A DNA stretch of 64,000 bases from Dictyostelium discoideum. Lineage: Eukaryota. The first letter of the stretch is position 1. Each line of letters opens with the position of its first letter. Location of the stretch: the NCBI GenBank assembly GCA_000004695.1, contig CM000150.2, positions 3,904,001 to 3,968,000 on the forward strand, given 5' to 3'. Made by a program: the position numbers and the translations under genes. This document shows positions 7,017 through 24,689 of this stretch, piece after piece. Under the pieces are notes generated by a model. The model worked only from the letters and a program-made list of their open reading frames with translations, was not told the origin of the DNA and searched no databases.

Positions 7017-8100
<1,084 letters not shown>

Positions 8101-12959: not shown

Positions 12960-15900
12960 ATTTTCATTAGTTTTACAAAAAATTTTTTAATCTTTCTCTC
13001 TTTCCCCCTTTTTTTTTTTTTTTTTTTTTTCTCTCTCTTTTTCTCTTTTACACAATTACCAATAAAATAATAAATTAATTTATATTCATTACTAATTATA
13101 TAAATAAATAAATAAATACACCTATTACAACAAATATAATTATAATTTATTTTCAAATATTTGAAAAAAACATAGGAATTAGATAAATTCCATTCAGTAC
13201 CAGATTATAATAACTATCTAACACTTATATTCAAAAGTAATGAATTACAACCACATATTAGAAGTGTTGCAGGTTTAGTTTTAAAGACTAATATCAAACA
13301 ATACTTTGAAAAAATGCCAAGAGAAGTTCAAAACTATATCAAAAGGGAGATTTTACCAGTTTTATCTGACCCAGATGCTTCAGTTCGTCATACAGTTGGT
13401 AATATCATTACAAATTTAATTAAAAAGAGTTGTTTTTCTGTATGTATAAAATTAATTTAATATTATAATATTAAATAAATATAAAATATAAATACTAATT
13501 CTTTATTATTATTATTATTATTATTAATTTATTTTAGGAATGGCCAGAATTATTACCAGCATTAAATTTAGCATTAGATAGTAATAGTCAAGATTTAATT
13601 GAAGGTTCACTTTATACATTATCATTGTTATGTGAAGATTCAACTAAAAAACTTGATTCAGATGATAGTGGTAGAGCATTGAATCAATTAATTCCAAAAT
13701 TGATTATGTTTTTCAAATGCAATAATGCAGATTTCAGAAAGAAAGCATTGGTATCCATTTCCTATTTCATTATTAGTATGCCAGGAGCATTGCTTATCAA
13801 TATGGAAGCATTTTTAAAGGGTATCTTTTCAATGAGTGAAGATCCATCAGAAGCTGTTAGAACCAATGTTTGTAAGACATTGGTTACCTTGGTAGAGACA
13901 AAGATCGAATTTTTACTACCATACATTAAAGATGTCATTCAGTATATGTTACATGCTACCAAAGATAAATCTGAAGAGGTAGCATTGGAGGCATGTGAAT
14001 TTTGGACAGCAATATCTCAAGCTGAAGGTTGCAGAGATTTATTAAGAGATTATTTACCAGTATTAGTACCAATTCTATTGAATGGTATGGTTTATACCGA
14101 ACAAGATTATGAATATTTAGATCAAGGTGATGATTCAATGACACCTGATAGACCACAGGATATTAAGCCATTTATAGCATCAACTAAATCACATGGTAGT
14201 GGTAGTAGTGGTGGTGGGCAAGATACAGGTTTTGTAAATCCAGATAATAATAATAATAGTAACAATAATAATAGTAGCAATAATAATAGTAGCAATAATA
14301 ATAATAATAATAATAATGAGGATGATGAAGAATATAATGATGATGATGATGATGACGATGATGATGGATTTGAAGATGAAGCATGGACAATTAGAAAGAG
14401 TTCAGCTTTTGCAATTGATGTTTTATCAGGAATATTTCCAGATGCAGAATATTTATCAGTTACATTACCATTGATTGAACAACGTATGAATGAACAAAAT
14501 CCATGGCCAGTTAGAGAATCGGCCATTTTAGCATTGGGTGCAATTGCAGATGGAAGTAAGAATGGATTGGCACCTCATCTTTCAAAAGTAATACCTTATT
14601 TAATCAATACATTGAATGATCCAAAACCATTGGTACGTAGTATAACATGTTGGACATTATCACGTTACTCCTATTGGATTGCACAAGCGGATGGACGTGA
14701 TTACCTTCATCCATTGGTTGTCAACTTGCTTAATCGTATCGTTGATAACAATAAAAAGGTTCAAGAAGCAGCATGTTCAGCATTTGCAACATTGGAAGAG
14801 GAAGCTGATCTCCTCTTGATACCATATCTTCAAATGATTTTGGTCACATTTGTCAATGCATTTGGAAAATATCAAGCAAAGAATCTCTTGATTCTCTACG
14901 ATGCAATCTCAACATTGGCCAAGGTGGTAGGTAATGAATTGAATAAACCAGAGTTGATCAATATATTGGTACCACCACTCTTACAGAAATTCAATGCATT
15001 GGATGATTCAAATAAGAATCTATTACCATTGTTGGGTTGTTTGAATCAAGTTTGCTCCTCCATTGGTGCAGGACTTCAAAATTTAATTTCTTTGTTTTTC
15101 AATCGTTCAATTAAATTAATTGAAGGTTCATTACAAGCTCATTATAAATATAATAATCAAGATCAAAAGGGCTCATCATCGTCGTCTGATCAAGATTTCA
15201 TTGTTGCAGCATTGGATCTCTTACAAGGTCTATCCGAAGGTATTGGTACATCGATCGAATCACTCATTCCAAATAGTAATTTACCTCATCTCCTCTTACA
15301 ATGTATGAATCTTCGTGGCTCCGATGTTTTACAATCAAGTTTTGCACTTCTTGGTGATATGAGTAAATTCTGTCTCATTCATTTCAAACAATACATACCA
15401 GACTATTTAAATATCCTCACAAACAATCTATATCCAGAGTATTTATCGGTTTGTAATAATGCAAGTTGGGCAATCGGTGAAATTGCCATTAGAATGCCTG
15501 ATGAAGTTAAACCATTCGTGGTTGCAATTCGTGACCGTTTAATTTCAAACATCAATAAAGTCAATTTAAATCGTGGTGTACTTGAAAATACCGCTGTAAC
15601 CATTGGTCGTTTGGGTATCGTTTCACCTGCTGATATCTCTCCATTTGTCGACAAGTTTATTCAATGTTGGTGTATGGCCATTCGTAGAAAAACTGATGAT
15701 ATTGAAAAGGATTCAGCTTTTCGTGGTATGTGGTTAATCATTAACAATAATCCAAATGGTGCTTTACGTCATTTAGTTTACATTTGTGACGCTGTTGCCT
15801 CTTGGGATAAAATGCAACCTGATCTCTATGAAGCTTACTTTAAACTTTTACATATGTATAAAACTAGTATGGGTGGTGTTTGGGCTCAATTCTATAATCA

Positions 15901-15967
15901 ATTTCCAGAACAACTTCGTGAAATTTTAAATGAGAAATTTAAATTGAATCAAGATATATCTCAATAA
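12816..15967 (+). CDS. transportin (karyopherin/importin beta-2); join(12816..12917,13176..13439,13538..15967)
   Basis: End-to-end colinearity with transportin-1: MSEWVPNQDGLKQL, PDYNNYL, SVAGLVLKTNIK, EWPELLPAL, EACEFW, acidic loop, WTIRK, VRSITCWTLSRYS, NKKVQEAACSAFATLEEEA, KNLLILYDAI, DSAFRG. Donors GAG|GTAATT and TCT|GTATGT; acceptors CATAG and TTTTAG. All three exons are in frame. Confidence 0.88.
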
Positions 15968-16042
15968 ATAAAAAAAAATAAATAAAAAATAAAAAATAAA
16001 AAATAAAAAATAAAAAAAAAATCAATAAATTAATAAATAATA

Positions 16043-16162
<120 letters not shown>

Positions 16163-16490
16163 TTAAAAAAAAAATAAAAATAAAAATAAAAAAAAAAAAA
16201 TTAAAAAAAAAAAAAAAAATAGATCAAATTAATTTAATCACAAAATTAATATTTAATCATAAAATAATAGCCAATAATAAATAATAATAATAATAAATAA
16301 AACAATGGCTATAATAATAATATAGCTATTTATAAAAATAATTTTTTTCTTTTTTTTTTTATTATTTCTCCGATCGGCGTTCTATTTTATTTTTTAAAAA
16401 CAGGGTTTTTATTTTTATTTTATTTTGGTTTTATAAAATGGTTTTTTTTTTTTATTTTTTATTTTTTTTTTTTTATTTTCCCAAACTGCA

Positions 16491-16522
<32 letters not shown>

Positions 16523-16592
16523 TTATTTTTTTTTTTTTATAACTTTTCCTAAAACAAACGTTTATAAAAAAAAAAAAACAAATAAAATTAAA

Positions 16593-17329
16593 ATGACAGA
16601 AAATATTAATGAATTTAGAGTTAATAATTTTGGAGCAGGACCAGGATGTATTCCAACTGAAGTTTTATTAGAAGCACAAAAAGAATTATTAAATTTTCAA
16701 GGTTGTGGTAAAAGTATAATGGAAGTATCACATAGGGGTAAAGAATTTGAAGGTGTAATCAATGAAACCAAATCAAATTTAAAGAAATTATTATCAATCT
16801 CTGATGATTATGATATATTATTTTTACAAGGTGGTGCATCATCTTTATTTGCAGGTATTCCAATGAATTTATGTGAAAATGGTGTTGAGGATATTGTTGA
16901 TTTCATAGTAACAGGATCATGGTCAAAACAAGCCTCAAACGATGGGAAATACTTTTGCAAAGTTAATAAAGTCGTTGATATGGAGAAAGAGAAATTCCTA
17001 ACTGTTACAGAGCCACAATCATGGAAATTCTCACCAGATGCAAAGTATGTCCACTATTGTGATAATGAAACCATTCATGGTATTGAAATGCCAATTTCAA
17101 CACCTGATCATTTACCATCAAATCTTATCAAAGTTTGTGATATGTCTTCAAACTTTTTATCAAAACCAATCGATGTCAATAAATTTGATTTAATTTTCGC
17201 AGGTGCTCAAAAAAATGCTGGTATCTCTGGTATTACAATAGTTATAATTAAAAAATCTTTATTATTAAAAACAAAACCAAATGTACCTTCAGTTTTTAAT
17301 TTTTTAGTAAGTTTTAATTATTAATTATT

Positions 17330-17361
<32 letters not shown>

Positions 17362-17886
17362 GTGTTTAGGTTGTGATTTTTTTTTTTTTTTATTTTTTTT
17401 TTTTTTTTATTTTATTATTTTTATTATTAATTATTTATTAATTATTTATTAATTATTATTTTATTAAAAAAAAAGAAAAAAAGTCAAAATAATTCATTAG
17501 ATAATACACCACCAACATTTAATATTTATATTACAGGATTAATATTGAAATGGATTATTAATAAAGGTGGTTTAAGTGAAATTGAAAAATTAAATATTGC
17601 AAAAGCACATGCACTTTATGAATATATTGATAATTCAAATAGTTTCTATAAATGTTCAATCGATAAGAACTATAGATCAAGAATGAATGTTGTATTTAGA
17701 ATTCAAGATGGTAATACTGAATTGGAAGAGAAATTCATTAAAGAAGCTTCAAAAGAAAATATCACCGATATTAAAGGTCATAGATCTGTTGGTGGTTTAA
17801 GAGTTTCTTTATATAATGCAATCACTATTGATCAAACTTTAATTTTAATTAATTTTATGACAAATTTTCATAATAATAATAAATAA
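16593..17886 (+). CDS. serC: phosphoserine aminotransferase (SerC/PSAT, PLP-dependent class V); join(16593..17306,17476..17886)
   Basis: GAGPGCIPTEVLLEAQKELLNFQGCGKSIMEVSHRGKEF, FLQGGAS, IFAGAQKNAGISGITIVII, NTPPTFNIYITGLILKWIINKGG, KGHRSVGGLRVSLYNAITI. Donor TTA|GTAAGT at 17307. The acceptor used is the AG at 17474-17475, which gives the 20-residue spacing PSV...NTPP seen in PSAT1. A-rich upstream tract. Confidence 0.85.
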
Positions 17887-18019
17887 AATTTAAAAATAAA
17901 AATAAAAATAAAACCAATAAAAAAAAAAAAAAAAAAAAAAACCAATTACAATATCTTTTTTTTATTTTTTATATACACTTATATTTGAATATTATTTATT
18001 TATTTTTTCATTTTTCATT

Positions 18020-18077
18020 CTATAAAAGTGAAAGATTACCAAGTAAATCTTCTAAATCATCAATAGTTTTTGAAATT

Positions 18078-18150
<73 letters not shown>

Positions 18151-18814
18151 CATCATTCATATCATCATTCATATCATCATTCATATCATCATTATTATTA
18201 TTATTATTATTATTATGAATTCTTTGTTGAGGATGCTCAAAATTATAAATGATTTTTTTTATTTTTTCTTTATCTTTTTCACTACCAGAAACATTTACAT
18301 AATCAATTATACTCTTTATGATTTGTCTTAATTCATTTTCTAATCTAGTTGCTTGTTGTTGTCTTTCAAGTTGATTAGTTGTTTTAATATTATCAAACAT
18401 TCTTTTTAATCTTGAACTTGCTAATTGTAATGCAGTATTATTGTTATTATCTCTTGTTAATATTGATTGCTGTTGTTGTTGTTGTTGTTGTTGTTGTTCA
18501 ATATTTCGATTATTTTGATTATTATTATTTTGATTATTATTTAATATCATTGAAACAATATTTGAAAAACCATTTATTGAAGCAATATGTAATGGTGTAT
18601 TATTATTTATATCTTTAAGTGTTGGATTTGCACCATTTTCTAATAGGTATTTTACAACATCTTGTTTATTTTTACAAACTGCAAAGTGTAATCCACTTCT
18701 TTGTTTATCATCAACTTGATTAACATTTACCATCCCATTTTGTATTAAATAATCAAGTAGTTGTAAATTTGAATCACTACATGCTTGAATATATTGACTC
18801 CAAAAATTATCCAT
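18020..18814 (-). CDS. ankyrin-repeat protein with poly-Q/poly-N tracts and a (DDMN)4 repeat
   Basis: ATG at 18814. ANK motifs (GLHFAVCKNKQDVVKYLLENGANPTLKD, NTPLHIASINGFSNIVSMIL). The track ORF started upstream at a non-ATG start, and its first residues are intron/UTR translation. No upstream exon was searched for. Confidence 0.55.
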
Positions 18815-19640
18815 TAAAAAAAAAAAAAAATATAAATCTCTATATAGTGGTTGTTGTTGTTTATAAAAAAAATAAAACAAATAAAATAAAAAAAAAAAAT
18901 TAAAAAAAAAAAAAAAAAAAAAAATTTGAAAATTAAAAAAGTGAAGTTATTTTTGGTTATTTTTTTTTTTTTTTTTTTTTTTATTTGATTTTTTATTTTT
19001 TTATTTTTTATTAAAATTCTCTTTCCCCAAAAATTTTTTCCATTTTTTTTGAGGGAAAAACTAATAAAAAATAAAGAAAAAAAAAAAAAAAAAAAAAAAA
19101 TCAAAACAATTCCCACTTTGAAAAAAAATGAAAAAACAATTAAAAAAAAAAAAAACCTAAACCCAAATCCAATTTTAATACAAATGCTCGAAACTCAAAA
19201 TCTATAAATTCCAAAATTTTTTTAATTTTTTTTTTTTTTTATTTCTTACTTGTACAAAAGCTCGGTTTTAGATAGATATTTTAATAATTGATTTTTATTT
19301 TTTTCTTTTGTTTTCGTGCAATGATTGGTTTTTATTTTAAAAATTTTTTTTCCAATTATTTTACCCAAAAAATGAGAAAAATCACAGAATTTGCGCTTTT
19401 GGATATTTTCATTTTGGAAAACTACGTCATGAAAATTATAAAATGATGAAATTAATCGGATTTTTTTATTTCTTTACCAAAAAATTTTTTTTTATAAATA
19501 GGGGATCGTTTTTTTAAAAAAAAAAAAAAAAAAATAATTTATTTAGTTAAACCAAAATAATTTATTTAAATCCATAAAAAATACAAAAAAATAATAATTA
19601 TAATAAATAATAAATTTATATTATAAAAAAAAAAAAAAAA

Positions 19641-22025
19641 ATGAAACAAATAATTTTCATTTTTTTAACTCTATTTATTTCATTAATATTTTCCGAATCA
19701 TCTGTTTATAATAAATTTGAATTCTTAGGCGAAGGATGTTCAGATTTTGGTGATAATTTAACAATTTCAAATTGCCAACCTTTATGTACCAACCATTTTG
19801 CTTCAATTTCACCAAGTAGTTCTATTTCCAATGGTTTTGATATTATTTTATATAATAATTCAGATCAATCATGTAATGTACCACTAATTCCAACCTTAAA
19901 TTTTACTTGTCTTGATAATGAGACTCCAGTTAAATTTGAAGATTTTGCAGTTATTTGTCAACAACAACAACCACCACAACCAGTATCAAAATTTATTAGT
20001 TTCCAATTTTTAGGTGATTCATGCCCAGATAATGGTGATTATTTAAATGTTTCTAATTGTCAAAATGCATGTGGAACTGATTTAATTTCAATTTCTCCAA
20101 GTCCAGATGTAACAGATGGTTTCATTGTAAATTTTTATAATTTAACTGATACTCTTTGTAAAACACCAATTGCTAATGATGTTTTCCAATGTCAAAATAA
20201 TGTCAGTGAATCTATAATTAATGATGGTACTAATGAATTTGATATCTATTGTAGTACCACTGTTCCAACACCAGCTCCATTACCATCTCCTTCCCAATTT
20301 ACTAGATTCTTATTGTATGGTGATTCATGTCCAGATAGTGGTCAATATTTAAATATTTCAAATTGTCAAAATACCTGTGGTACTGATCTCGTTTCAATTT
20401 CTCCAAATCCAACTGTTACTGATGGTTTCCTTGTAAATTTTTATAATTTAACTGATACTCTATGTAAAACCCCAATTGGTAATGATGTTTTCCAGTGTCA
20501 AAATAATGATACCGAATCAATAATCAGTGATGGTGATAATGATTTTGAATTATATTGTGAATATCCAGCAACATTATCCCCATTACCAACAAAAACTCCA
20601 TCACCAACTCCTTCACCAACTCAATCACCAACTCCTTCACCAACTCCTGCCCCATCAAAATATAATGAGTTTGAATTATTGGGCGATAATTGTCCTTCTG
20701 CTGGTGATCAAGTTGTAATTGGTCTTTGTCAAAATGCTTGCAATTATAGATTGGTTAATATTATTCCAAGGGATGATGTTTCTGATGGTTTTATCATTGA
20801 GTACTATAATATTACTGATACTTATTGTCAAACTATTTTAGATACAGACGAATTCCAATGTTCTGCCAGTACTTCAGTTGTTGATTTGTTCAATATTAAT
20901 TGTGAAGCTGTTACTCCTGCACCTCCATCTCCAACTCCAAATCCTTCAAATGGTAATATCTTTGGATTTTATGGTGATTATTGTCCTTCTGCTGGTGATA
21001 GACTTGAAGTTGGACTTTGTCAAAATGCTTGTAATTATAAATTACTTAGTATCATTCCTAGTGACGATGATAATGAATCTTTTAATGTTCAATACTTTGA
21101 ATTAAATGATACCTATTGTCAAACCGTTGTTGATAATGATTATTTCGAATGTGCAGATGGTGAATCAAATATTGATGATTTCCAAGTTAATTGTTTAGTA
21201 ACCCCATCACCATCACCAACTCAAACTCCTTCACCAACTCAAACTCCAACTCAAACTCAAACTCCAACTCAAACTCCAACTCAAACTCCAACTCAAACTC
21301 CAACTCAAACTCCAACTTCAACTCCATCAAGATATAATTATTTTGAATTCTATGGTGATAATTGTCCAGAAGATGGTGATTATTTAGAGGTTGGTCTTTG
21401 TCAAAATGCATGTGATTATTTAAGAGTTAGTATCATTCCAAGACAAGGTGTTACTGATGGATTTACTGTTCAATATTATAAATTAAATGATACAGTTTGT
21501 GATAATCAAATTGATTCTGATGTTTTCCAATGTTCAGGTAGTGCTTCATCTATTGATTATTTTGATATTTATTGTGATGTTTCTACACCATCGCCAACTG
21601 AAACAACAACACCAACCCAAACACCAACTCAATCTCCTTCAACATCAGAATATGATGGTTTTGATTTTTATGGTCAAGTTTGTCCAACCACTGGTTATAA
21701 TCTTACAGTTGGAAATTGTCAAAATCTTTGCGACTATAGAAGAGTTTCTATTATTCCATCCGAAATAACTCAAGATGAATTCCAAGTACAGTTTTATCAA
21801 GTTTCAGATAAAAAATGTGCAAATGTTATTGAATCTTCATCATTACAATGCAATAATGGTGGTAACTCTACAACAATTGATCAATTTAACATTTATTGTG
21901 AAAAATCTTTTACCCCAACTAATACATCCTCTAATTCAAGCCATGAAAATATTGGTTATAAATTTGAAACTAATAATTTATTAATATTACTTTTATTGTT
22001 AATTTCAATTTTTATTTTTTATTAA
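19641..22025 (+). CDS. secreted, probably GPI-anchored, cell-surface glycoprotein with 7 tandem Cys-rich repeats (about 85-95 aa each) separated by Pro/Thr/Ser mucin-like linkers
   Basis: N-terminal signal peptide MKQIIFIFLTLFISLIFS. Seven repeats of pattern F.F.GD.CP..GD.L.V..CQN.C....L.SI.P...V.DGF.V.YY.L.DT.C.T.....D.FQC.......ID.F.I.C. Linkers PTPSPTQSPTPSP and (TQTP)n. Many N-x-S/T sites. C-terminal hydrophobic tail NLLILLLLLISIFIFY. Single exon. Confidence 0.7.
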   Translation: MKQIIFIFLTLFISLIFSESSVYNKFEFLGEGCSDFGDNLTISNCQPLCTNHFASISPSSSISNGFDIILYNNSDQSCNVPLIPTLNFTCLDNETPVKFEDFAVICQQQQPPQPVSKFISFQFLGDSCPDNGDYLNVSNCQNACGTDLISISPSPDVTDGFIVNFYNLTDTLCKTPIANDVFQCQNNVSESIINDGTNEFDIYCSTTVPTPAPLPSPSQFTRFLLYGDSCPDSGQYLNISNCQNTCGTDLVSISPNPTVTDGFLVNFYNLTDTLCKTPIGNDVFQCQNNDTESIISDGDNDFELYCEYPATLSPLPTKTPSPTPSPTQSPTPSPTPAPSKYNEFELLGDNCPSAGDQVVIGLCQNACNYRLVNIIPRDDVSDGFIIEYYNITDTYCQTILDTDEFQCSASTSVVDLFNINCEAVTPAPPSPTPNPSNGNIFGFYGDYCPSAGDRLEVGLCQNACNYKLLSIIPSDDDNESFNVQYFELNDTYCQTVVDNDYFECADGESNIDDFQVNCLVTPSPSPTQTPSPTQTPTQTQTPTQTPTQTPTQTPTQTPTSTPSRYNYFEFYGDNCPEDGDYLEVGLCQNACDYLRVSIIPRQGVTDGFTVQYYKLNDTVCDNQIDSDVFQCSGSASSIDYFDIYCDVSTPSPTETTTPTQTPTQSPSTSEYDGFDFYGQVCPTTGYNLTVGNCQNLCDYRRVSIIPSEITQDEFQVQFYQVSDKKCANVIESSSLQCNNGGNSTTIDQFNIYCEKSFTPTNTSSNSSHENIGYKFETNNLLILLLLLISIFIFY

Positions 22026-22819
22026 ATAAAAAAATATTTATTTAAATAAATTAATTATTATTAATATTATATGTTAGACATTTTCGCGTTGTTCATGTGA
22101 TTAATAATTCTCTAAATTTTTAAACATTTTTTAAATTTTTTAAAACTGTTACAGTTTTAAAAAAAAAAAAAAAAAAAAAAAATTTAAATTCCTTCACCCA
22201 AATTTTTTTTTTATTTTGGTAAATAGATAGAAAAGGTAAGATTTTATCAAAATATAGTGTCATTTTTTCAAATTAAGTAAAATTTTATAAAAATAAGAAA
22301 TATAATTAAAAAACAATAAAAAATAATTAAATATATTTAAAAAATGAATCTTGTTATAAATAATAAAAAACATATTTAATTAAATATAATAAAGGAAAAT
22401 ATAAAATAAAAAATAATATGTAAAACATTTTCTTTTTTAGTTTTTATTTTTTAATTTATTTTATATTTTATTTTTCCAAATAAAACTTTTTTTAAATTAC
22501 AAACAGTGGAAATTATTCCCAACAAATTTGTAATGATGTGGAAAATATGCATATAAAGACAATATTAATAATAATAAAATTAAAAACCACACTGGTAGCT
22601 CTAATTAGGAAATCTACAAAAATTTCCTTAATTAATTTCAATTTTTTATATCAATTTCAGAACACATATTAATATTTAATTTATTATTATCAATTTTGTT
22701 TAAATTTTTTTTTTTTTTTTACCTGTGATCAGACCTTCAAGGAATGTCCTTGTGTCTTTTCGGCGGTGTTTGTTAAACGGTTTTATTTTTATTATTCAAT
22801 TGTATTAAATTTTTTAAAC

Positions 22820-22828
<9 letters not shown>

Positions 22829-22897
<69 letters not shown>

Positions 22898-23960
22898 ACT
22901 ACTTAAATTGGAAGAGGGTTCGGAGCTGCTGGGGTTTGCCAGGCTTTGTTGAATTTGTATTTGTGAAGATCTTGATTGGTGTTTTTTAGTATTGCTTCGT
23001 CGTGTTTGATTTTCTTTAGTGTGATGAATTTTTCAGTTTCGATGAGATTTAGTTATTCTGTTTCTATGACCTTTTGTTCGAATTTTGGCTCTGGTTTGCT
23101 TTCATCAGTGTTGAACAATTTGTGACAGATTATCTTCCATAATTGGTGTGCTATTATTCCTATGAGATTGGGGAAGATTCTCTCAGTTCTGTTGTATTTT
23201 GATATGTCTAAGGTATCCATCGACCATCTGTGGATTTTGATGAATGATAATTTGTTAACTGTTGATATGATGGTTTTTTCAATATCTAGGATATCTTGGC
23301 ATAGAGTGAAGAGGTGAGAATAAGGGTCTCTGAATAGGTGGCCACAGATCTTGCATCTGGTGTCTCTTTCGTGGTTGATACCTGGAAGTGATCTTGAGAA
23401 GAATCTGAAGAGGGTGTTTCTACCTTTTTGGTGAGAAATGCTGTTGATGTTTATGAATACTTTGGGTATTGCTGTGTTGTATCTCACCGCCCATAACTTC
23501 TGCCATTCTGTTCTTCTTGGTGTTGGGTGTCTGTCTTTGATCATGAGTTCGTAAATTTCTTTCAGTTTTAGTGGTTCGTCATTGTCGTTTCTTATACAGT
23601 CTGGAAGTTCATTTATCTTTGGATGGTTTTGGTAAAATTTGACTCTGAATACACCCCAGTGTCTGCACATATCGTTGAGGGTTGAAGTGTGGGCTTTTTT
23701 TCTACTTAATTGCTCCGTGTACCATTCTTGTAAGGTATTGTTGTTGTTGTTGTAGTTGTTATGGAGTAGCCTGTTCATGTACCAGATTTTGAATGCTATA
23801 TGTCTTAGTTCTATATCCCATAATTTTATGCCTCCTTCTTTCCAATCTGCATATGCTCTGTCTATTTTCATCATAGTTTTGTATTTTCTCTCTTCTGTAT
23901 ATGTATTCTTAACTGAGGAGAATAAGAACCATCTGGTCATGTTAAATTTTGTTTAAATAA
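22829..23960 (-). mobile_element. 5'-truncated non-LTR retrotransposon copy (tRNA-gene-targeted TRE-like element): ORF2 C-terminal region, 3'-UTR and poly(A) tail
   Basis: Plus strand shows a 66-nt T run at 22829-22894, which is the poly(A) tail of a minus-strand element. A roughly 160-nt GC-richer 3'-UTR follows. Minus ORF 23053..23940 contains the Cys/His motif typical of LINE ORF2 C-termini (CKICGHLFRDPYSHLFTLC). Local G+C is clearly above the genomic background. The element abuts a tRNA gene. Confidence 0.65.
23053..23940 (-). CDS. retroelement ORF2 C-terminal fragment (Zn-knuckle-like CKICGH...HLFTLC)
   Basis: 295-aa ORF inside the retroelement fragment. No homolog in the rest of the window. 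Confidence 0.5.
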   Translation of the reverse strand: MTRWFLFSSVKNTYTEERKYKTMMKIDRAYADWKEGGIKLWDIELRHIAFKIWYMNRLLHNNYNNNNNTLQEWYTEQLSRKKAHTSTLNDMCRHWGVFRVKFYQNHPKINELPDCIRNDNDEPLKLKEIYELMIKDRHPTPRRTEWQKLWAVRYNTAIPKVFININSISHQKGRNTLFRFFSRSLPGINHERDTRCKICGHLFRDPYSHLFTLCQDILDIEKTIISTVNKLSFIKIHRWSMDTLDISKYNRTERIFPNLIGIIAHQLWKIICHKLFNTDESKPEPKFEQKVIETE

Positions 23961-23977
23961 ATAAAATTTAAAAAAGT

Positions 23978-23981
<4 letters not shown>

Positions 23982-24008
<27 letters not shown>
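23982..24008 (-). terminator. RNA polymerase III terminator (T-run) downstream of the tRNA gene
   Basis: 27 A on the plus strand, which is a T27 run on the tRNA strand, beginning 14 nt after the tRNA 3' end. Confidence 0.45.
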
Positions 24009-24022
24009 TTGTTAAAAATATA

Positions 24023-24095
24023 TGAGATAGATGGGGATCGAACCCACGACCTAACCCGTGTGAAGGGCTCGTGATAACCACTACACTACTTTCCC
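24023..24095 (-). tRNA. tRNA-Val (anticodon CAC), 73 nt
   Basis: Minus strand GGGAAAG TA GTGT AGTGGTTA TCAC G AGCCC TTCACAC GGGTT AGGTC GTGGG TTCGATC CCCAT CTATCTC A. Canonical D-loop (AGTGGTTA) and T-loop (GGTTCGATCC). Anticodon stem AGCCC/GGGTT, loop TTCACAC. One A-A mismatch (positions 5 and 68) and one G-U pair in the acceptor stem, so functionality is not certain. Confidence 0.6.
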
Positions 24096-24299
24096 ATAGG
24101 CTGGAATGTTATCCTAAAATTTTTGGGAATTTTTATGATTCTTTTGTAATAATTTAATAGTTAATATTAATCACTATCAATCGGACCGCATCAATAAAAA
24201 GAAGACTCGAAAAATTCAGCCACAACTGGAACTCGAAACTCATGACCATAAAAATCCCGGAACACTTCATACCATACTGCTCATATAACACCAACTACT

Positions 24300-24339
<40 letters not shown>

Positions 24340-24463
24340 ATAACAATAATAATAATAATAATAATATAATAATAATAATAATATAATAATAATAATATAA
24401 TAATAATAATAATAATATAATAATAATAAAAAAAAAAAAAAATAAGAATAACAAGAAAAAAAG

Positions 24464-24498
<35 letters not shown>

Positions 24499-24689
24499 CA
24501 AATAAACTCTCCTAGAACACACTCAAATTGAGTGATGTTATTAAAAAAAAAAAAAAAAATAATTTAATGTGAGAGACCCTGTAAAAAAAAAAAAAAAAAA
24601 ACTAAAAATAAAATGAGATCTAGCATCTCAAGGAGAAGCAACTAATAATTGCGTTATCCAATTCAAAAAAAAATTTGTAATAATTTATT

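Follow-up and report, generated by a model that had tools for sequence, protein, structure and literature searches.

A tRNA gene with the remains of a retrotransposon beside it raises three questions: which element left them, where exactly they begin and end, and whether their present shape arose at insertion or later. We addressed these questions in a 64-kb stretch of the Dictyostelium discoideum genome (assembly GCA_000004695.1, contig CM000150.2, positions 3,904,001 to 3,968,000; the whole stretch is called the window below), where a tRNA-Val(CAC) gene on the minus strand is followed by a coding fragment of retroelement appearance. An earlier reading of the letters (the original prediction) had described this fragment as a 5'-truncated retroelement spanning 22829-23960, ending in a 66-nt poly(A) run and having its broken 5' end turned towards the tRNA gene. 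In reviews, TRE3 elements are defined as lying some 100 bp (40-150 bp) downstream of a tRNA gene and sharing its direction of transcription, and in the literature they are non-long-terminal-repeat (non-LTR) elements with two open reading frames (ORFs), an ORF2 with APE, reverse transcriptase (RT), and zinc-finger (ZF) regions, and an oligo(A) end. We conclude, with a probability of roughly 0.93, that the fragment is a dead-on-arrival insertion of TRE3 type downstream of the co-oriented tRNA-Val(CAC) gene, that its 66-nt A-run (A66) is internal, and that it most probably belongs to the subfamily TRE3-C. The occurrence of TRE3 downstream of tRNA genes is already known and is a textbook feature of the D. 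discoideum genome; the significance of the locus lies mainly in its correct annotation, i.e., the exact boundaries 22705-23944 and the target-site duplication. All features are listed in Table 1.

Table 1. Features of the tRNA-Val(CAC) locus in the window, and position of the related copies relative to their tRNA genes
Feature	Position	Strand or orientation	Basis or remark
tRNA-Val(CAC) gene, targeted gene of RNA polymerase III	24022-24096	-	ARAGORN; Rfam RF00005
T5 run within the 14-nt spacer	24014-24018	-	direct reading of sequence
T27 homopolymer between tRNA and insertion site	23982-24008	-	measured run length
Target-site duplication, 5' copy TTTAAACAAAATT, 13 bp	23945-23957	-	abuts the element's first base
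5'-truncated TRE3-type non-LTR retrotransposon copy, 1240 bp	22705-23944	-	BLASTN against related copies
ORF2 remnant, 295 codons (post-RT region and CCHC zinc knuckle)	23053-23940	-	ORF list, homologues
Rest of the ancestral ORF2 frame	22903-23052	-	read-through in homologues
Internal A-tract, 66 nt	22829-22894	-	run length; alignment of copies
Conserved 3' terminal module, 108 nt, TATAATATAG...GATCACAGGT	22721-22828	-	alignment of copies
Terminal oligo(A) tail, A16	22705-22720	-	run length; similarity ends after the run
Target-site duplication, 3' copy TTTAAACAAAATT, 13 bp	22692-22704	-	abuts the A16 tail
Second 5'-truncated non-LTR fragment, upstream of tRNA-Val	24157-24673	+ (opposite to tRNA)	flanking duplication, L004 match
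Related copy L001	downstream of Ser(TGA) tRNA	co-oriented	
Related copy L002	downstream of Val(AAC) tRNA	co-oriented	
Related copy L004	downstream of Lys(TTT) tRNA	co-oriented	
Related copy L005	downstream of Thr(AGT) tRNA	co-oriented	
Related copy L006	downstream of Ser(AGA) tRNA	co-oriented	
Related copy L007	downstream of Asp(GTC) tRNA	co-oriented	
Related copy L008	downstream of Met(CAT) tRNA	co-oriented	
Related copy L009	downstream of Val(CAC) tRNA	co-oriented	orthologue of the window

Boundaries of the element and its two-part 3' end

Related copies were taken from the DNA around nine homologous protein fragments, which comprise eight D. discoideum loci and one locus of D. dimigraforme. 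In BLASTN comparisons, the similarity to the copies at L001, L005, L007, and L008 begins at window position 23944 and finishes at 22705/22706, and these four copies extend further 5' in their own loci. The substitution-only identity between the window element and its relatives is 99.2-99.6%. With the copies at L002, L004, and L006, the segment 22705-23944 aligns only partially. From its 5' end onwards, the element consists of the C-terminal region of ORF2, the internal A-tract, the 3' terminal module, and the tail. The span of 22829-23960 had to be corrected at both ends.

Target-site duplications, for which the original prediction had suggested a search, are present as an exact 13-bp repeat, TTTAAACAAAATT. 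A search of the whole 64-kb window for this 13-mer gives two sites and no more; both are on the minus strand and coincide exactly with the element's junctions. Exact duplications were also found around other copies, with lengths of 15 bp (L001 and L004), 19 bp (L008), and 14 bp (L006). We also tried to place a duplication directly after A66 and rejected this candidate, as the flank there ('aatataatatag') has no match at the 5' junction.

Since the duplication adjoins the truncated 5' end, the copy was already truncated when it inserted. Incomplete target-primed reverse transcription (TPRT) usually leaves copies truncated at the 5' end. The original prediction had instead taken the position of the 5' end facing the tRNA as abnormal, implying that a copy inserted at full length, or with its poly(A) towards the tRNA, was shortened later by deletion or rearranged by nested insertion. 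Retroelement clusters at Dictyostelium tRNA genes are indeed often nested or tandem, and a TRE5-A-like fragment lies on the other side of tRNA-Val. However, the two copies of the 13-bp repeat adjoin the truncated 5' end (23944/23945) and the tail (22704/22705), and had a deletion followed the insertion, the 5' copy would be gone or out of place. Five other copies are truncated at differing points and carry their own duplications where these are readable. Finally, published TRE3 elements normally share the orientation of their tRNA, and the arrangement in the window, with the 5' end facing the tRNA, is the canonical one. Truncation at insertion makes any subsequent deletion or nesting unnecessary, and we give the scenario of later shortening very little credit.

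The other end of the element is less obvious. The A-run is 66 nt long, as originally described, and the diagnosis of a 5'-truncated retroelement stands, but the run is not where the element stops, which continues for another 124 nt (the 108-nt module and A16). The order of parts is the same in all nine other D. discoideum copies, i.e., the ORF2 stop, GTAGTAGT, an A-run, the 108-nt module, and a terminal A12-18, and the D. dimigraforme copy has this order too, with a diverged sequence. In the multiple alignment, the copies become unrelated only past the terminal A-run, and a 46-nt core of the module, located 60 nt beyond A66, is identical in L001. As the module and the terminal A-run are shared past A66 in all copies, the true end of the element falls at 22705, and A66 is an internal tract, not the tail of the element.

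One might still argue that the element ends at A66 and that the 108-nt segment with A16 is a second, tiny retroelement insertion or simply flanking DNA. The ORF2 stop lies only 8 nt before A66, which resembles a minimal 3' untranslated region followed by its tail, and tandem TRE insertions do occur. Yet the nine other D. discoideum copies, which sit at different tRNA genes, and the D. dimigraforme relative all have the long A-run, the module, and the short A-run, and diverge only afterwards. Moreover, the duplications in the window, L001, L004, and L008 flank the whole unit, there is no duplication around the inner piece of 108 nt plus A16, and the 3' end of a second TRE3 subfamily is likewise made up of two parts. 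This leaves an end at A66 with a probability of a few percent at best.

The second TRE3-like subfamily was found at L002 (7996-9810) and L006 (3450-4367), downstream of tRNA genes, with about 67-69% DNA identity to the window element. Its 3' end comprises a stop, an A-run, an AT-rich module of about 130 nt ending in CACCGCTTTTAGGT, and a tail. At L006, there are three or four successive tandem insertions, each with its own duplication, one of the fragments being only about 20 nt long. Tandem TRE arrays, such as those of L002 and L006, are documented in the literature. This subfamily may be TRE3-A or TRE3-B.

The internal A-tract varies in length. It has about 29-41 nt in the nine other copies, against 66 nt in the window, and at the orthologous locus L009 (about 7189-7216) it has about 28 nt, i.e., about 38 nt less than in the window. 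This difference between assemblies may reflect either a genuine instability of the homopolymer or an assembly artefact. A long internal A-run of this kind would mislead programs that call element boundaries from poly(A).

The 108-nt module has a predicted RNA fold of -15.2 kcal/mol (z = -2.3 relative to shuffled sequence) and includes a hairpin, CAAGGA-CAU-UCCUUG, whose stem D. dimigraforme retains, with an altered loop. Together, the fold and the conservation of the hairpin are no more than suggestive. Provided that the primary TRE3 papers do not already describe the two-part 3' end, it is conceivable, if rather unlikely, that the module acts as a specific 3' recognition signal for the TRE3 RT, in which case TRE3 would be a 'stringent' long interspersed nuclear element (LINE) with a fossil or functional internal poly(A). 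The TRE3 literature that we consulted does not mention a two-part 3' end.

The ORF2 remnant and the family of the element

The coding part of the element stands out by its composition, with a GC content of 0.33-0.43 over about 22900-23800 vs 0.07-0.22 in the intergenic flanks at about 22000-22900. It encodes a Cys-His motif, C196-X2-C199-X9-H209-X4-C214 (CX2CX9HX4C, window 23299-23355), whose four residues are invariant or nearly so in an alignment of 12 dictyostelid homologues. The window ORF matches dictyostelid proteins only, named 'hypothetical protein', 'Reverse transcriptase zinc-binding domain-containing protein', or by generic non-LTR names, with no subfamily name among them. In the homologue P0008, an RVT_1 domain lies directly N-terminal to the part that matches the window ORF, and P0021 has Exo_endo_phos, RVT_1, and then the matching C-terminal region. 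An exact-protein look-up returned no record for the window ORF, P0046, or the 790-aa flanking ORF. These relationships bear out the earlier description of a GC-rich ORF2 tail with a Cys-His knuckle: the window ORF is the C-terminal CCHC zinc-knuckle part of the ORF2 of a non-LTR retrotransposon of the APE-RT-ZF type.

Neither end of this ORF is original. The D. discoideum protein P0007 extends further N-terminally (...ERYLGLNF...EEINNMTRWFLF...), and its segment ...EEINNMTRW... spans the 'start' Met of the window, which makes the apparent start ATG an internal Met codon of ORF2. At its other end, the window ORF is closed by a TTA>TAA change at 23053-23055 that is missing from the paralogous copies and common to the orthologue L009; at L007, the reading frame is open across this position. 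The natural TAA stop of ORF2 lies at 22903-22905 and is followed by GTAGTAGT at 22895-22902, and the homologues P0001, P0002, and P0003 read through as far as ...KFNKAWQTPAAPNPLPI. The window copy is inert, because it lacks a promoter, ORF1, endonuclease, and RT and has a premature stop.

A homopolymer within ORF2 (window 23705-23711, with counterparts in L001, L004, and L008) differs by one A between copies: with seven A the frame is open, with six it is shifted, and the shifted state was found in three of the seven other copies (the orthologue L009 excluded). This could be real decay or a homopolymer error in the long-read assembly.

Could the GC-richer ORF belong to a cellular or domesticated gene? 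Its 295 codons are open from an ATG, similar fragments are annotated as 'hypothetical protein', and there are weak, sub-threshold Forkhead matches. Nevertheless, the sequence is present in multiple copies at 99.2-99.6% DNA identity, including its non-coding 3' part, and in longer copies it is contiguous with RT and APE domains. Its ATG is internal to ORF2, a premature stop sets it apart from its paralogues, and the Forkhead scores across homologues (17-23 bits) are below the cut-off of 27. We therefore attach hardly any weight to a cellular origin.

The weak Forkhead similarity (PF00250) covers residues 115-179 of the window ORF (about 23404-23598) and recurs at the same place in P0001, P0002, and P0005. 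It may be noise, or else mark a stretch resembling a winged helix that separates RT and zinc knuckle.

The niche proposed in the original prediction was encountered throughout the family. All ten copies, including those of the window and its orthologue, are downstream of a tRNA gene and on the same strand (Table 1). Distances could be measured in four independent clean cases, at L001, L004, and L008 and in the window, with which its orthologue L009 is counted. The duplication begins there 62-72 nt and the element 77-87 nt past the 3' end of the tRNA, and the exact duplications have 13-19 bp. The window has values of 64 nt for the duplication and 77 nt for the element, the other copies 62-72 nt and 80-87 nt. 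Counted from the start of the internal B box of tRNA-Val, the element begins after exactly 100 nt. L004 and L008 have an external B box; the stretch between tRNA-Val and the element has none. The distance, the orientation, the non-LTR architecture, and the oligo(A) tail with target-site duplications all agree with TRE3.

The subfamily was assigned from one full-length relative, at L008 (1059-5810), whose 4752 bp are enclosed by a 19-bp duplication. An AT-rich non-coding leader of 257 nt precedes the ATG of its ORF1 (293 aa), which is followed by a UAAUG overlap of stop and start and by an ORF2 in the -1 frame with Exo_endo_phos (2.5e-9), RVT_1 (1.6e-36), and then the CCHC region. Because of the non-coding leader, L008 is not a truncated version of a longer element. 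Spaller et al. (2016, Table 1) list a consensus of 5229 bp for Dd_TRE3-A, one of 5279 bp for TRE3-B, one of 4734 bp for TRE3-C, and only a partial one for TRE3-D. By length (4752 vs 4734 bp), the subfamily is probably TRE3-C.

Dd_TRE3-C shares with the window family its non-LTR nature, the two ORFs, an ORF2 with APE, RT, and zinc knuckle, and the oligo(A) end, the assignment among subfamilies having been made by length alone. Dd_TRE3-A (Tdd-3) and Dd_TRE3-B have the same family-level architecture, niche, and orientation, but their consensus sequences exceed the full-length copy of the window family by about 0.5 kb. For TRE3-A, an ORF2 in the -1 frame relative to ORF1 has been reported; here, the corresponding arrangement is the UAAUG overlap of L008. 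Mammalian LINE-1, a non-LTR retrotransposon of the L1 clade, resembles the family in its APE, RT, and C-terminal Cys-His regions, TPRT, frequent 5' truncation, duplications of 13-19 bp, and A-tail. In contrast, LINE-1 does not target tRNA genes, its ORF1 is unrelated to that of TRE3, and, in the window family, a specific 3' module follows upon an internal A-tract.

Several points weigh against the assignment. Membership in TRE3 was established from architecture, niche, and orientation, and not from alignment to TRE3-A to -D, and the call of TRE3-C takes the length of one full-length copy as its evidence. The window ORF has no Pfam match above threshold (the sub-threshold ones are Forkhead at 19 bits, Imm26, and zf_PCFS4), and its retroelement nature is thus taken from its homologues. 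As for targeting, the experiments linking an element to the RNA polymerase III (Pol III) complex are reported in reviews for TRE5-A only, not for TRE3.

Another tRNA-targeting element, Skipper-2 or a TRE5, is barely credible: the chromovirus Skipper-2 shares the landing zone downstream of tRNA genes and the ORF2 proteins of TRE5 and TRE3 are homologous, but Skipper-2 is an LTR retrotransposon with integrase and chromodomain, the window element has neither LTR, integrase, RNase H, nor chromodomain and its full-length relative has APE, RT, and an oligo(A) end, TRE5 elements lie upstream of tRNA genes in opposite orientation while the window family is downstream and co-oriented at all ten loci, and the abundant D. 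discoideum RT/zinc-knuckle family of P0031 and P0064 is only 26% identical to the window ORF. The likeness of Dd_TRE5-A (DRE) to the TRE3-type element extends to an APE-RT-ZF ORF2, tRNA-gene targeting, 5' truncation, and target-site duplications; the difference lies in the insertion of TRE5-A about 48 bp upstream of tRNA genes in opposite orientation. The TRE3-type element of the window does not have this position and orientation; the fragment at 24157-24673 (+) does.

The tRNA-Val(CAC) gene as a target

The tRNA-Val(CAC) gene is the sole tRNA gene and the sole Rfam match within the window. ARAGORN called it Val(cac), the isotype stated originally, and the RF00005 match (24023-24095) scores 54.5 bits against a gathering score of 29. 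Drawn by hand, the acceptor stem pairs G1-C72, G2-U71, G3-C70, A4-U69, A6-U67, and G7-C66, and the A-A mismatch that had been reported at pair 5-68 is real (A5/A68); the remaining stems of the cloverleaf are regular. A minimum-free-energy fold of the tRNA gave no cloverleaf, which was verified by hand and with the Rfam model instead. The internal B box, GGTTCGATCC, begins at 24044 (pattern search). The tRNA sequence is identical at the orthologous locus L009.

Between the discriminator base of the tRNA and the T27 run there is a spacer of 14 nt (tatatttttaacaa), so that both the spacer and the run measure what had been described. The role given to T27, that of Pol III terminator, is doubtful because of an earlier T5 run in the spacer, 4 nt past the ARAGORN end of the tRNA (24022) and 5 nt past the discriminator A73. 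Transcription by Pol III is terminated by at least four T residues. The T5 run is the first and, judging from the letters, most likely terminator; it would suffice to stop Pol III, and T27 is therefore not required in this role. T27 may be ordinary AT-rich intergenic DNA or a back-up terminator. A scan for promoters and terminators of bacterial type was set aside as irrelevant to a eukaryotic Pol III gene.

Despite the A5/A68 mismatch, tRNA-Val(CAC) is used as a landing pad. It has received insertions of both TRE5 type and TRE3 type, plus a further TRE5-A-like element in another assembly (see below), and a Pol III complex is therefore very likely assembled on it. For comparison, a TRE is associated with 61% of the D. 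discoideum tRNA genes, and 13% have TRE5 as well as TRE3.

These observations would fit the following course of events. The TRE3 ribonucleoprotein may have been recruited by the transcription complex of Pol III at tRNA-Val(CAC), where TFIIIC, bound at the B box 100 nt upstream of the element's first base, would be the usual suspect for targeting. The ORF2 endonuclease would then have nicked the DNA, and reverse transcription would have been primed on the terminal oligo(A) after the 108-nt module. It would have stopped after 1240 nt, resulting in the 5' truncation, and a second-strand cut staggered by 13 bp would have produced the duplication of TTTAAACAAAATT.

The orthologous locus and the surrounding DNA

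To the side of the element, a 794-aa ORF (19641-22022, +) has an identical product in the D. discoideum assembly GCA_054883475.1, and this product places the orthologous locus, L009. L009 is 99.7-99.9% identical to window 15622-24142; the truncated TRE3 copy and its duplication recur there at 99.9% identity, as does the TTA>TAA premature stop. Since the truncated copy and its duplication are shared, the insertion predates the split of the two genomes.

The second fragment, upstream of tRNA-Val, is flanked by an exact 14-bp duplication, TTTGTAATAATTTA (24143-24156 and 24674-24687), of which the tRNA-proximal copy begins 46 nt upstream of the 5' end of tRNA-Val. The 14-mer is found nowhere else in the window, and two matches were not attained in any of 100 shuffles. 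From 24176 onward, the fragment matches the 3' part of a long element at L004. The 5' end of this L004 element carries 2.5 tandem repeats, each about 190 nt long, that stop about 46 bp upstream of tRNA-Lys in head-to-head orientation, and its ORF1 has 444 aa. TRE5-A elements have A/B/C modules. Their published features include the upstream position, the opposite orientation, and a 51-kDa ORF1, and both the L004 element and the upstream fragment would fit a TRE5-A-like element. The 3' end of the fragment has several internal A-runs and a (TAA)n stretch.

The similarity between L009 and the window stops at 24142. At this point, 47 nt upstream of the tRNA, a TRE5-A-like element starts in L009 (8466-10385) that is 99% identical to the L004 copy and begins with the repeated 5' module; there is none at this point of the window. 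The L009 element was probably gained as a new insertion in this strain only, in tandem with the older fragment.

Two minor observations concern the flanks. The 794-aa ORF has an internal direct repeat of 263 bp with 84% identity (19990-20252 and 20296-20558); a word-indexed protein search found no homologue of it at E <= 1e-30, and it probably encodes a lineage-restricted protein of low complexity. Beyond the tRNA gene, the segment 25472-26482 is 83-93% identical to positions 7182-8316 of L005, an otherwise unrelated locus of the other assembly, and is a repeated sequence or a paralogous gene.

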